Source of the DNA: Halarcobacter sp.
GTDB taxonomy: Bacteria > Campylobacterota > Campylobacteria > Campylobacterales > Arcobacteraceae
DNA length: 64,000 bases
Direction: 5' to 3'
Assembly (NCBI GenBank): GCA_963676565.1
Contig: OY781089.1
Location: 160,001-224,000, forward strand
This document shows, piece after piece, positions 737 through 12,922 of the stretch (positions within the stretch are counted from its first letter, which is position 1; every line of letters begins with the position of its first letter). The translations under genes were made by a program, and so were the position numbers. The notes beneath the pieces are model-generated. The model was given only the letters and a program-made list of their open reading frames with translations. It was not told where the DNA came from and ran no database searches.

Positions 737-805
737 GTATAATGTTTAAAATGAGCCGATAAATTTCCCTCAGGGTAATTTATTGGCTCCTCTGATTTGT
801 TAGAC
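737..805 (-). repeat. attC-like site, family copy 1 (crossover GTT mutated to ATT)
   Basis: 61-bp core 741-801 differs at 5 positions from the copy at 1917-1977; geometry R''-5bp-L''...L'-6bp-R'. Confidence 0.9.
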
Positions 806-808
806 GTT

Positions 809-1693
809 TTATAATTCAAATCTAAATTCTTCTGGATGTTCATCATTAGGATAGTACGCTTTTATTTTGTATACATTTGTTTTGATTACATTTTCATCAA
901 TATTTATTTCTTTGTCTACCAATAATCCAAACAGCCATGGTCTTTCAAATTTTTCAATGTATTCAAATGAAATGAGCTTTCCTTCTTCCGTATCAACTTC
1001 ATTAATATTTATTATATTTGATATTTTAACTAATTCAGTTAGAAAAATTAATACACTTTCATCAATATATAAAGAAGACCCACCAATATCTTTTTTTGAG
1101 CCCATATCATCTAGAATATATGCTTTTGCTAAGGCTGTATTCATTTGAAGTTCTTTAAGATTACTTATTACAATTGGATTACCTGTTCCTTTTGCTATAT
1201 TAGAATAACCACCTTTAGGTCTTGTATAATTTAAAACGAAATCATCAATTCTTGCCTCACTAAAAGTATATTCAGCTTTTTCACCAAATGCAATTACAGT
1301 TCTTGCACCTGGCAAATTATTTGAAATCTCTGATTTCATAATAAATACATGAGACATAATAATATCTCTAAGCCATAGCTCAATACCATGGAGAATATTT
1401 ATAGCTTTATCCATAATATTGTTTTCAATGAAATATGTTTTGATAACTCCATCGTTTAACACAAACATATAACTATTTGATGGAGAAAAATGTCTACTAT
1501 GAATTTTGTAAAATTCATCTAATCTATTAGTGATTTTTAACCAATCTTTTTTAGATAATTTCCAATTTGTTTTTGTAAAATGAGAACCAAATCCTAATAA
1601 GTCAGACCATGCACAAAGATTTAAGGATATTTGAAAACCCTCTTTATTTTGCAGTTTATCTCCTAAAGGACTAGAATACTTATTACTATACAT
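809..1693 (-). CDS. Hypothetical protein with class III nucleotidyl-cyclase-like motifs; cassette gene
   Basis: Ordered motifs WSDLLGFG ... VLNDGV ... GARTVIAFGE ... NTALAKAYILD ... LYIDES resemble the adenylate/guanylate cyclase fold. Confidence 0.55.
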   Translation of the reverse strand: MYSNKYSSPLGDKLQNKEGFQISLNLCAWSDLLGFGSHFTKTNWKLSKKDWLKITNRLDEFYKIHSRHFSPSNSYMFVLNDGVIKTYFIENNIMDKAINILHGIELWLRDIIMSHVFIMKSEISNNLPGARTVIAFGEKAEYTFSEARIDDFVLNYTRPKGGYSNIAKGTGNPIVISNLKELQMNTALAKAYILDDMGSKKDIGGSSLYIDESVLIFLTELVKISNIININEVDTEEGKLISFEYIEKFERPWLFGLLVDKEINIDENVIKTNVYKIKAYYPNDEHPEEFRFEL

Positions 1694-1870
1694 TTATATA
1701 TCAATCTTTTTTCCACTTAACTTGAAGTAAACAAATCCAGCACTCACTAACGCTATTACAAAAATAATTCCTGTTTCTTCTTTTGCTGGGTTACCTACTA
1801 GACTTAAAAGTCCAATAAATAATCCAAAAAATATAACAATACCTATAGTTCGTGCAAAATTTTCTTTCAT
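1694..1870 (-). CDS. Small 2-TM membrane protein (58 aa), abutting the cyclase-like ORF
   Basis: Not in ORF track. RBS AAGGAA, ATG at 1870: MKENFARTIGIVIFFGLFIGLLSLVGNPAKEETGIIFVIALVSAGFVYFKLSGKKIDI*. Stop TAA is directly followed by the ATG at 1693. Confidence 0.75.
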   Translation of the reverse strand: MKENFARTIGIVIFFGLFIGLLSLVGNPAKEETGIIFVIALVSAGFVYFKLSGKKIDI

Positions 1871-1886
1871 TTTATTCCTTCATATG

Positions 1887-1921
1887 ACGTTATCGGGTCG
1901 CCGCAGGCGAGCCGATAACGT
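1887..1921. repeat. GC-rich hairpin (16-bp stem, 1 mismatch, GCA triloop) at an attC crossover point
   Basis: ACGTTATCGGGTCGCC-GCA-GGCGAGCCGATAACGT. Confidence 0.85.
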
Positions 1922-1981
1922 TTAAAATGAGCCGATGAATTGCCCACAGGGTAATTTATTGGCTCCACTGATTTGTTATGT
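1913..1981 (-). repeat. attC-like site, family copy 2 (intact AAC and GTT)
   Basis: Minus strand ACATAAC-AAATC-AGTGGAGCCAATAAATTACCC-TGT-GGGCAATTCATCGGCTCATT-TTAAAC-GTTATCG; the stop codon of the upstream gene lies in R''. Confidence 0.92.
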
Positions 1982-3500: not shown

Positions 3501-3520
3501 ACTATTCCTTTGCAATTTTT

Positions 3521-3587
3521 ATATAATATTTAAATACACCAATAAAGTGCCGCAGGTACTTTATTAGTGTGCTATGATTTGTTATGT
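3521..3587 (-). repeat. attC-like site, divergent variant (crossover GTT mutated to ATT)
   Basis: Minus strand ACATAAC-AAATC-ATAGCACACTAATAAAGTACC-TGC-GGCACTTTATTGGTGTATTTAAAT-ATTATAT; same AACAAATC end as the family copies. Confidence 0.85.
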
Positions 3588-4303
3588 GCTTCATTTTCGT
3601 TTAAGTTTACTTTGATTATTTCTTCATTATCTTTTCTTTTAATTAATAAAGTTGCAATGGAAAAATTTTTAACACCTCTATACTCTTCAACATTTTTTTC
3701 GCCAAATATAAAATAACCTTCTTCGTCAAGTTTTTTTATTTGGTTATCAAATTCTAAGCCTATATTAATTTTATCTCGAATTTCTAAATCACTACTGATT
3801 TCACCATAATCAATAAATGTTTGTAATGTACTTCCAATATAGTCAGCTTCATCTTTTGAAATTATATTATCGTAATCGACCCTATATCCCATCACATCAG
3901 ATAAGATATTCATTAACTCTTTCCCAGATGAGATTCTTACTAAAAATTTTATTTCTTCTATATTTTTATTGCCATCAAGTTCTTTTTTTAAAGTCTTTTG
4001 TACCCAGTTTTCATGATTTTGTTTCATATATCTTAATATTTCTTCTGGAAAAGAATCTATTAAAGTATCAATTTCTTTGTGATGATTTCTACATAATAAA
4101 ATCAAGTTATCAAATGTATCATAATCATTTAAATTTGGCTTATGTCTTGGTCCTTTTGATTTGCTACTTATAATATGACATTCTTCACCAATATTTAGGT
4201 TACTATCTGTTTCTTGTTCTGTAATTAGTTCGATTTTACAGATAGCACATCTATTACCTGATTTTGCCCAAAGCATTTTTCTAGTTTTTTCTGATATTGC
4301 CAA
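3572..4303 (-). CDS. HNH endonuclease domain protein with unknown C-terminal domain; first cassette
   Basis: LWAKSGNRCAIC...EECHII...GPR...NLILLCRNHHKEID; probable TTG start at 4303 after AGGAA, inside the cassette boundary at 4341. Confidence 0.85.
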   Translation of the reverse strand: MAISEKTRKMLWAKSGNRCAICKIELITEQETDSNLNIGEECHIISSKSKGPRHKPNLNDYDTFDNLILLCRNHHKEIDTLIDSFPEEILRYMKQNHENWVQKTLKKELDGNKNIEEIKFLVRISSGKELMNILSDVMGYRVDYDNIISKDEADYIGSTLQTFIDYGEISSDLEIRDKINIGLEFDNQIKKLDEEGYFIFGEKNVEEYRGVKNFSIATLLIKRKDNEEIIKVNLNENEAHNKS

Positions 4304-4333
4304 TCTACTAATTCCTATTTTATTTTTAAATCT

Positions 4334-4364
4334 CACATAACTATCTATTGAATACCCATTATAT
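4334..4364 (-). promoter_or_regulatory. attI-like site with upstream -10 box (candidate cassette promoter)
   Basis: Minus strand TATAAT-GGGT-ATTCAAT-AGATA-G/TTATGTG: a 7-5-7 simple site with no hairpin; second TATAAT at 4397-4392. Confidence 0.6.
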
Positions 4365-4456
4365 AAATAAAGCACTTAAATCCACTTATTTATTATATAT
4401 TCTTAAAAGAGCATATTTTAGGTATAGCTTCTAAAATGTTGGATTTTTAGAGAATC

Positions 4457-10759: not shown

Positions 10760-10765
10760 TTTCTC

Positions 10766-11767
10766 TTATTTCCATCCTGATTTATCAAATATTTTAACTG
10801 CATTAATATTATATTTTCCCATAGTATTTATTGAGATATTATCATCTTCAAACGTCCCCCATGAAGAAACCACATCATTTTTCTTAACACCCTTTGCAAC
10901 AGGATATTCAAAGTTCCCATTTGCAAATAAATCTTGTGCCTCAGGACTTAATAAAAACTCTATAAATTTAATAGCATTTTCTTTATTAGGAGAATATTTT
11001 GCAACTCCTGCACCACTTACGTTTATGTGTGTTCCACCATTCTCAAATTTAGGAAATATAATCTTTACTTTTTTAACTGCTTCACTTTCAGCAATATCTT
11101 TATTACCAATCATTTTACCAACATAATAAGTATTTGCAATAGCAATTTTTCCAATTCCATTTGCTACAGCTTTTACTTGATATCTATCATTTCCTCTAGG
11201 TCGTCTTGCCATATTCTTTACAACGCCTTTTGCCCATTTTAAAGCGTACTCTTCACCATGGTGAGCAATAACAGCGGCAAGCATTGATTGATTGTAAACA
11301 TGGTTTGATGATCTAACCATAATCATTTTTTTATACTCTGGTTTTATTAAATCTTCATAGGTTTTAATCTCAATATTACTATCAATTGGAACAATAAAGG
11401 CTCTTACTCTTTTTGTCAATGCAAACCATTTATTATCTTCATCCCTTAGATTTTCAGGAACAACTTCCATTAGATATTTTGATTCAATTGATTGAATTAA
11501 GCCTTTTGATTTTGCTTGATAAAGTCTTCCTGCATCAACAGTGATTAAAACATCTGCTGGTGACTTTTCACCTTCACTTTCTAATCTTTTAATTAAAGCA
11601 TTAGCATCTGCATTTACAACATTTACTTTAATACCTGTTTTTTCCTCAAACATTTTATATAATTGTTTATCTGTATCATAATGTCTGTGAGAATATACAT
11701 TTACTTCATTTGAAGCAAAAACAAAATTTGTAAAAATAAAAAAACTTAATAATATTTGTTTAATCAT
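10766..11767 (-). CDS. fbpA: Fe(III) ABC transporter substrate-binding protein, paralog 2
   Basis: VNVYSHRHY, ADVLITVDAGRL and ANTYY motifs (FutA/CfbpA type). Confidence 0.9.
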   Translation of the reverse strand: MIKQILLSFFIFTNFVFASNEVNVYSHRHYDTDKQLYKMFEEKTGIKVNVVNADANALIKRLESEGEKSPADVLITVDAGRLYQAKSKGLIQSIESKYLMEVVPENLRDEDNKWFALTKRVRAFIVPIDSNIEIKTYEDLIKPEYKKMIMVRSSNHVYNQSMLAAVIAHHGEEYALKWAKGVVKNMARRPRGNDRYQVKAVANGIGKIAIANTYYVGKMIGNKDIAESEAVKKVKIIFPKFENGGTHINVSGAGVAKYSPNKENAIKFIEFLLSPEAQDLFANGNFEYPVAKGVKKNDVVSSWGTFEDDNISINTMGKYNINAVKIFDKSGWK

Positions 11768-11820
11768 ATTTGTACCTTTTTAAAATATAGATTATATCAT
11801 TTATGAAGTAAAACATTTCT

Positions 11821-11839
11821 TATAGTAATAATTGTTATC
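11821..11839. promoter_or_regulatory. Fur box candidate
   Basis: TATAGTAATAATTGTTATC, 14/19 match to GATAATGATAATCATTATC, upstream of iron ABC genes. Confidence 0.55.
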
Positions 11840-11856
11840 AAAATGATAATAAGAGA

Positions 11857-11891
11857 TAAAAAAAGGGAGTAGCAAAAACTATTCCCTTTCT
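11857..11891 (-). terminator. Intrinsic terminator between the two binding-protein genes
   Basis: Minus strand AAAGGGAATAG-TTTTTG-CTACTCCC followed by a T run. Confidence 0.7.
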
Positions 11892-11914
11892 TCTTTGTTA
11901 AATATTAGATTGTA

Positions 11915-12922
11915 TTATTTCCAACCAGCTTTATCAAACACTTTTACTGCTGCTGCATTGTTTTTCCCAAGCTCATTAATTGAAATTGTGTCATCTTCAA
12001 ATTCACCCCAAGATTCAACTATAGGATTTTTCTTTACACCATCAATAACTGGATATTCAAAGTTCCCTCCAGCAAATAATTCTTGTGCATCTTTGCTTGC
12101 TAAAAACTCAATAAATTTAATTGCATTTTCTTTATTAGGAGAATATTTTGCAACCCCTGCACCACTTACATTTATATGTGTTCCACCATTTTCAAATTTA
12201 GGAAAGAAAATCTTAACTTTTTTTACAGCTTTAGCTTGTGATTCATCTTTATTATCAACCATTTTACCAATATAATAAGTGTTTGCAATTGCAATTTCAC
12301 CAATACCATTTGCAATAGCTTTTACTTGATATCTGTCATTACCTTTTGGAGCCATTGCCATATTTGCAACTACACCTTTAGCCCAGTTTAAAGCATATTC
12401 TTCACCATGGTGAGCAATCATACCTGCTAATAATGATTGGTTATATGTATTATTTGAAGATCTAACCATGATTTTACCCTTAAATTTTGGGTCTGCTAAA
12501 TCTTCATAAGTAGATAATTCTTTTTCTATTCCTGATCCTAATTTATAAACTGTAACTCTTGCTCTTTTAGTTAAACCAAACCATTGGTTATCTTTATCTC
12601 TTAATTTTTGAGGAATTGAATTTATTAATTTTTCAGACTCAATTGCTTGAAAAAGACCTTTTTCTTTTGCTGTATATAATCTTGCAGCATCTACAGTGAT
12701 TAAAACATCAGCTGGTGATTTTTCACCTTCAGATTCAAGTCTTTGAACTAAAGCAGAACCTTTTGCTTTTACAACATTTACTTTTATACCTGTTTTTTCT
12801 TCAAACATTTTAAACAATATTTTATCTGTGTCATAATGTCTTGTTGAGTAAATATTAACCTCATTTGCAGCATAAATTGAACTTGTCAATAATAATGCAC
12901 CTAAAAATAATTTTTTTAGCAT
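11915..12922 (-). CDS. fbpA: Fe(III) ABC transporter substrate-binding protein, paralog 1
   Basis: Same motifs as paralog 2; start ATG 12922 after AAGGAA (MLKKLF signal peptide). Confidence 0.9.
   Translation of the reverse strand: MLKKLFLGALLLTSSIYAANEVNIYSTRHYDTDKILFKMFEEKTGIKVNVVKAKGSALVQRLESEGEKSPADVLITVDAARLYTAKEKGLFQAIESEKLINSIPQKLRDKDNQWFGLTKRARVTVYKLGSGIEKELSTYEDLADPKFKGKIMVRSSNNTYNQSLLAGMIAHHGEEYALNWAKGVVANMAMAPKGNDRYQVKAIANGIGEIAIANTYYIGKMVDNKDESQAKAVKKVKIFFPKFENGGTHINVSGAGVAKYSPNKENAIKFIEFLASKDAQELFAGGNFEYPVIDGVKKNPIVESWGEFEDDTISINELGKNNAAAVKVFDKAGWK

Follow-up and report, generated by a model that had tools for sequence, protein, structure and literature searches.

A stretch of 64,000 nucleotides from Halarcobacter sp. 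(the window) holds a gene for a small protein with two transmembrane (TM) segments, directly followed by a gene with motifs of nucleotidyl cyclases. An earlier note on this DNA had proposed a divergent anti-phage system of a cyclase and a membrane effector, with the caveat that two cassettes could have been fused by chance. This raises the question whether the two genes belong together functionally. According to the analysis described here, two cassettes were likely fused, the cyclase-fold enzyme likely acts alone and probably in phage defence, and the 58-aa TM protein is likely a passenger; a probability of about 0.6 is given to this reading.

Locus and cassette array

Both open reading frames (ORFs) are present on the minus strand of the assembled window sequence. 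The ORF at 809-1693 encodes 294 aa; its product has a predicted class III nucleotidyl-cyclase fold and belongs to an unnamed family. The ORF at 1694-1870 encodes a two-TM protein of 58 aa, whose family is small, likewise unnamed and has the conserved loop LLSLVGNPA.EET. As described in the earlier note, the stop codon (TAA) of the small ORF is immediately followed by the ATG of the large one; since 0 nt separate them, there is no attC in between. An AAGGA ribosome-binding motif lies 5 nt before the TM start (1876..1880, minus strand), whereas the 25 nt upstream of the cyclase ORF are free of AGG-type motifs. From this arrangement of motifs, the AAGGA likely drives the cyclase as well by translational coupling, and the 58-aa protein most likely serves here to supply translation.

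The unit is closed by an attC at 737..805 (minus strand) with R'' GTCTAAC at 805-799 and R' ATT at 743-741. The attC consensus has GTT at R', and this attC is therefore probably inactive. The attC of the preceding transglutaminase-like cassette (1913..1981, minus strand) belongs to the same 69-bp family, of which three copies occur in the array (at ~739, ~1915 and ~2803) besides other attC-like hairpins. The integron-cassette setting is supported. The array is a short run of minus-strand cassettes from -177 to ~4375 of the window, which converges on the end of a plus-strand housekeeping gene; its other cassettes encode the transglutaminase-like protein, two ABM-type proteins and an HNH nuclease. 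No integron integrase scored over the cut-off in the complete 3.34-Mb genome. A second attC with ATT replacing GTT at R' was seen at ~3520-3530. With two such attC and a genome without integron integrase, the array gives the impression of being frozen and in decay.

The start of the unit (GTTATCG) and its R'' (GTCTAAC) do not match, as had been noticed before. In the metagenome runs X1, X2 and X5, this TM unit begins with GTTAGAC, a box that matches R''. Compared with X1, the window has 24 additional nt inside the R' box, at the site of a hairpin formed by a 31-nt inverted repeat (1889..1919, minus strand) that is absent from the 97%-identical TM unit of X1. Because the three runs keep the matching box and the hairpin interrupts that of the window, the mismatch is regarded as a secondary change.

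Elsewhere in the genome, near 2,607,000-2,659,000 of C1, the attC family has a fourth copy, which is partial, and copies of the array's upstream leader are also present. They lie near a tyrosine recombinase and an ordinary cyclase, and this is perhaps a second cassette region. Two tandem paralogous genes with ~78% identical DNA were seen at 10761-12855 of the window. Promoter-like sites were not above shuffles (21 vs 26.2).

Fold and active site of the 294-aa protein

The AlphaFold (AF2) model of the 294-aa protein had a pLDDT of 93.6 and a pTM of 0.90. The Foldseek matches listed for it were class III cyclases, with Cya2 (2w01) as the best at E 1.6e-7. The best VIA-align match was a guanylate cyclase (Z 14.9, rmsd 3.3, 179 aligned), followed by Cya2 (Z 14.8), PycC 8jsz (14.2), PycC 7r65 (12.8), GGDEF (~10) and mCpol (9.6). 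From this ranking a class III fold is predicted; the substrate cannot be told from the fold.

All five motifs were located in class III order, i.e. DLLGF (31-35), NDG (80-82), RTVIAFG (131-137), ALAKAYILD (187-195) and YIDE (209-212). All 108 aligned relatives share residues D31, N80, D81, R131, G137, Q183 and N185. In class III cyclases, metals are described as bound by two Asp and the terminal phosphate by an Arg; Asn and Arg serve the transition state, and a Lys/Asp or Glu/Cys pair serves the base (PMC6592433). D31 and D81 are accordingly predicted as metal ligands and R131 as phosphate binder; N80, Q183 and N185 are family-specific invariant residues. NDG aligns on the canonical GDA in an hhalign alignment that is not significant alone, and R131 lies in the strand aligning on IRIGI. 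The dN/dS of the cyclase is 0.11-0.13 against 4 close loci. Owing to the invariant residues, the match to the class III fold and the low dN/dS, the motifs are more than chance. The earlier note had suggested a structural check for a cyclase fold and two catalytic Asp, and both are supported.

Four residues ahead of D81, at the base-specifying position, 103 of 108 relatives have L, F or I. In the register deduced from the motifs against 28 canonical domains, the transition-state positions correspond to S/A189 and I/L/T193. The invariant N185 and K/R190 (K or R in 105 of 108) may stand in for the transition-state residues.

The best probability in hhalign comparisons with 28 canonical PF00211 domains was 0.5%, which is not significant, and 0 of 108 family members matched the PF00211 profile at E<=0.01. 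At the same threshold 0 of 108 matched the PycC models of PADLOC 2.0, a library from 2023 that need not hold clade F. Searches of Pfam, NCBIfam and PADLOC gave no real match for either ORF, and profile searches of PDB sequences found nothing. In the ESM Atlas, the cyclase was matched by unnamed clusters only (0.96-0.98); a Guanylate_cyc cluster, at 0.89, provides a lead, and the 30 nearest clusters share no common Pfam family. No description of the family was found in searches of the literature; the word 'cyclase' is absent from the main text of three integron defence-screen preprints, the supplements of which could list the family under another name. On the basis of these sequence searches the family is considered unnamed.

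The small two-TM protein

The 58-aa ORF codes for two hydrophobic segments joined by a short loop and for no soluble domain. Its relatives form 18 clusters at 70-91% identity, which argues for a real gene, and the loop motif is invariant in 18 of 18 clusters. PycTM matched neither the ORF nor the genome (the control of the genome search matched in 1 of 14), and the ESM Atlas gave nothing usable for this ORF. Viral contigs, plasmids, 183 other genomes of Arcobacteraceae and 400 genomes of the phylum were all free of the TM family. Six distant homologues do not lie in clear cassettes, and the cyclase was found in 0 of 6 genomes, all drafts, with distant TM homologues. In L146 and L149, the distant homologue is coupled to an unrelated ORF of 424-476 aa.

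Distribution and gene neighbourhoods of the cyclase family

The relatives of the cyclase comprise 66 clusters and 207 representatives at 50% clustering, and are spread over many phyla. Their distribution is patchy, with members in 4 of 183 other Arcobacteraceae genomes and 0 of 24 in a genus tally. There was no phage record and six weak plasmid matches. The GC content of the cyclase is lower than that of its flanks in 51 of 59 loci.

The neighbourhood sample, which leaves out the surroundings of the 18 close TM clusters and of most close cyclases (e.g. P0002, P0238-P0251), consisted of 109 non-self cyclase loci (26 + 79 + 4); the TM family was found in 0 of these 109 loci. It was likewise found in 0 of 5 whole genomes holding the cyclase, several of the genomes in this two-way comparison being drafts. 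Neighbours were counted in 104 loci grouped into 69 clusters at 85% identity; L031, L046, L065, L083 and L107 were dropped as they had no called cyclase ORF. Six of the 69 cluster representatives had no neighbour of at least 100 aa within 1.2 kb; 63 loci were scanned. No neighbour family recurs in more than three of the 69 clusters, and the one that reaches three looks like a transposase. A same-strand ORF with at least two TM segments lying at most 150 nt upstream was present in 0 of 69 representatives, 59 of which had at least 400 nt upstream. Two downstream multi-TM ORFs were seen: a cation-efflux gene and an ORF that is probably spurious.

Four of the five closest loci are single-gene cassettes, namely L032 (94%) and L033, L034 and L006 (80-81%). 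Their layout comprises an attC, an R' box (GTTAGAC or GTTAAAC), AAGG at a distance of 5 nt from the ATG, and an R'' that matches or nearly matches. The DNA likeness of these loci to the window begins at the cyclase ATG, and the window is without their leader. The cyclase is also found as its own cassette in record 6 of run X3. In the window, two whole ORFs are followed by an attC only after the second, and the second gene occurs elsewhere as its own cassette; both features mark fused cassettes, and the caveat of the earlier note is thus supported by the single-gene cassettes and the TM-free loci.

In the fifth closest locus, L007 (65%), and in L046 (53%), the cyclase follows an Mrr-type nuclease gene. 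The Mrr-type genes (L007:5294-5992 and L046:157-957) are tightly coupled upstream, at 8 nt and 0 nt, and could represent a second facultative pairing. A gut-type cluster of cyclases (L060-L064, L068, L070-L072, L075, L078, L079) lies, as seen in L062, between genes for a polysaccharide pyruvyl transferase and a glycosyltransferase, not among defence genes.

The gene pair in metagenome runs

Eight runs hold part of the TM DNA, and five of them (X1, X2, X3, X5, X8), chosen for TM DNA, were examined. In X2, X3 and X5, a TM homologue that differs at 9 positions in 191 nt and a cyclase with ~88% identical DNA are joined on a single contig. The joint measures 89 letters against 66 in the window, i.e. 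23 extra bases. As variants are shared, the three runs represent one lineage, from two studies. The unit of X2 and X5 begins with GTTAGAC, which is complementary to the R'' of the window, and lies behind different attC arms. The pieces from X8 do not bridge the junction of TM gene and cyclase. Homologues of the cyclase are without the TM gene in the 109 loci and joined to it in one other lineage.

At all 11 of the listed amino-acid changes, the cyclase of this lineage agrees with P0003. In the tree, the window protein groups with that of the single-gene cassette L032 (99/99), and P0003 lies outside that clade. The pairing therefore arose twice, or once with a loss in L032. It has persisted, and the second lineage speaks against pure chance.

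Run X1 holds a TM unit that is 97% identical to that of the window and lies behind the same attC type, without the cyclase; 29 further letters are visible. It matches the window for 8 nt past the TM stop (with at most 1 mismatch), followed by other DNA. The cyclase gene begins with the same 8 nt. Either the fusion formed through this microhomology, or X1 goes back to a fused unit from which the cyclase was lost.

Defence context

Nearest neighbours of the cyclase family include AbiEii, Drt8, QatD, OloB, AbiLi, type IIG RM, Mrr, AbiV, AbiJ, TIR and MrcB. By our own count, a defence- or toxin-antitoxin-type gene is the nearest neighbour in 24 of the 63 scanned loci, a different one each time. 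PADLOC matches at E<=1e-25 were obtained for 12 of 107 neighbours and 4 of 87 control proteins, a difference that is not significant (Fisher one-sided p 0.078); the 12 probably include a housekeeping desulfurase. The surroundings of many cyclase loci are housekeeping or polysaccharide regions.

A TIR gene was present in 1 of the 63 scanned loci. This gene, of CAP12/Pycsar type (L092:457-1557), lies 61 nt upstream of the family member and is the only classic nucleotide-effector neighbour seen. An AbiV-type HEPN gene overlaps the cyclase start by 1 base in two Arcobacteraceae genomes belonging to one cluster (L114:2379-3038 and L115:836-1495). The cassette array L032:31-8712 is rich in defence genes, with an ATPase and helicase-like pair, the cyclase cassette and then a Drt8-type reverse transcriptase. 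In the array of the window, the HNH nuclease cassette (3572-4375, minus strand) resembles models of a CBASS effector and of PDC-M68A (E 1e-29 to 6e-27, N-terminal part only) and is a candidate defence gene.

Two fusions were found within the family. One relative carries ankyrin repeats; another, P0122 (432 aa), has AbiGi (E 1.2e-59) in front of the cyclase domain. To our knowledge, AbiG has no known mechanism. It is described as having no known fold (PMC13064643). No longer fused forms of the cyclase were found among proteins of 824-2350 aa.

Integron cassettes are reported to hold single-gene defence systems often (bioRxiv 10.1101/2024.07.02.601686, 10.1101/2024.07.02.601719), and among the streamlined systems described is one of 64 aa (bioRxiv 10.1101/2024.07.02.601686). 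An anti-phage role of the lone cyclase is plausible, with the odds about even.

Proposed mechanism and alternative explanations

The window unit is probably a fused cassette with a member of an unnamed, mostly solitary family of class III cyclase-like proteins. Two separate cassettes would have fused with loss of the first attC, leaving one integron unit; cassette fusion by attC loss is a described event (PMC4670013). The ribosome-binding site of the 58-aa passenger would now translate the cyclase by coupling. The cyclase would be a lone metal-dependent nucleotide-converting enzyme; nearly all relatives are without this or any fixed partner. Following class III enzymology, a head-to-tail homodimer would bind NTP and two Mg/Mn ions via D31 and D81, and R131 would hold the leaving phosphates. 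W29, N80, Q183, N185 and K/R190 would replace the canonical base and transition-state residues, so that a product other than plain cAMP or cGMP is probable. A phage cue would activate the enzyme, and NTP would be drained or the cell flooded with cNMP. Since no receptor travels along, the enzyme would be its own effector. Such self-acting defence is the weakest step and is put forward tentatively, as less likely than not. The host genome contains five cNMP-binding-domain ORFs and two ordinary cyclases, which could be affected. A bolder version is speculative: the family would be a widespread one-gene anti-phage cyclase without receptor, its rebuilt active site (N80, Q183, N185, K190) would form an unusual cyclic nucleotide, and the 58-aa peptide would have been captured more than once as an anchor or brake in one branch.

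The recurrence of the pair could also point to a facultative two-gene cassette, in which the TM protein was recruited in one branch as a cyclase-binding anchor, inhibitor or sensor and kept by selection, L032-type copies having lost it. The same gene order, tight spacing and a matching R' box in a second lineage from two studies would agree with this, as would the TM loop motif invariant in 18 of 18 clusters. P0003 stands in an open fork of the tree, where one gain and one loss fit as well as two gains. The distant cyclase P0101 has an N-terminal hydrophobic extension; this is, however, unrelated to the TM family. Further, the TM family is absent from 109 of 109 cyclase loci, the outgroup cassettes are all single-gene, distant TM homologues are coupled to other genes, and the runs were picked by TM DNA and represent one lineage. 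Selection for the pair is thus considered rather unlikely, and fusion with a passenger is preferred.

It is quite unlikely that the protein serves outside defence, as a constitutive or stress-linked nucleotide-modifying enzyme or as an NTP-binding protein without cyclase activity that is found in islands only through mobility. The base-specifying Lys/Glu position occupied by L, F or I (103/108), the transition-state Asn/Arg off the usual register and the defence enrichment short of significance would fit this, and a solved structure is described as a class III-like ATP-binding protein (6yii, Z 12.2). Against it stand the invariance of both Asp, the phosphate Arg and further polar residues, the patchy spread (4/183 other family genomes) and the many different defence neighbours. 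From the proposal of the earlier note, the class III fold and the metal Asp are retained, but not the partnership. In a divergent Pycsar-like system, the cyclase would make cNMP on infection and the 58-aa protein would be a cNMP-gated membrane effector. The fold is tied with PycC (8jsz Z 14.2, 7r65 Z 12.8), the order of TM gene and cyclase is that reported for clade F Pycsar (PMC13069673), streamlined defence systems, including one of 64 aa, are known from integron cassettes (bioRxiv 10.1101/2024.07.02.601686), and L092 has a CAP12/Pycsar-type TIR gene upstream. However, 0 of 108 members match a PycC model, PycTM is found neither in the ORF nor in the genome, two helices and a short loop leave no room for a nucleotide-binding domain, and no type of effector is a recurrent neighbour of the family. 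A system of this kind is very improbable. The pair is probably neither a conserved system nor Pycsar; the two genes probably result from a cassette fusion.

Comparison with known systems

With class III adenylate/guanylate cyclases (PF00211; 2w01 Cya2, 3r5g CyaB, 3et6), the predicted fold is common over residues 17-294 (Z 14-15, rmsd ~3.3), and the two metal Asp and the phosphate Arg also occur in motif order in the window protein. The family differs from them by an identity of 9-14%, a hydrophobic base-specifying position and transition-state Asn/Arg out of the usual register; it is without a sensor or membrane domain and moves as a single-gene cassette.

Pycsar cyclases (8jsz, 7r65, 8jsf; PMC11224242) are likewise described as stand-alone class III domains of similar size in mobile, defence-rich DNA. 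Two PycC proteins have an aromatic residue two positions before the first Asp (F100, F60), where the window protein has W29. Unlike Pycsar, the window family has no match to PycC or PycTM models and travels without a cognate receptor; Pycsar receptors are reported to bind cNMP and then to form a pore or cleave NAD (PMC11224242). In Panoptes (mCpol + 2TM-beta; 9mnr; PMC12657230), a palm-type nucleotide cyclase adjoins a two-TM gene, as in the window. Its mCpol, however, is a 119-residue palm, and the Panoptes effector is described as binding c-di-AMP through a soluble nucleotide-binding part (PMC12657230). Panoptes was rejected as an identity for the pair, because mCpol (9mnr) is the worse structural match (Z 9.6 vs 14.9 for class III) and the 58-aa ORF is without a soluble ligand domain.

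In the descriptions of Pycsar and Panoptes, the synthase comes with a dedicated receptor (PMC11224242, PMC12657230). A conserved cyclase that moves alone with a non-canonical pocket would, if the present reading is true, point to a self-acting enzyme or to a signal read by host proteins, possibly a new nucleotide. A single 885-nt gene suffices for testing the lone cyclase.

The closest parallel for the unit as a whole is given by fused cassettes such as blaGES-1/aacA4, described as two whole coding regions that have lost the first attC and are moved and transcribed as one unit (PMC4670013). The window unit differs in its location in a short chromosomal array without integrase, and in that its second gene has also lost the ribosome-binding motif.
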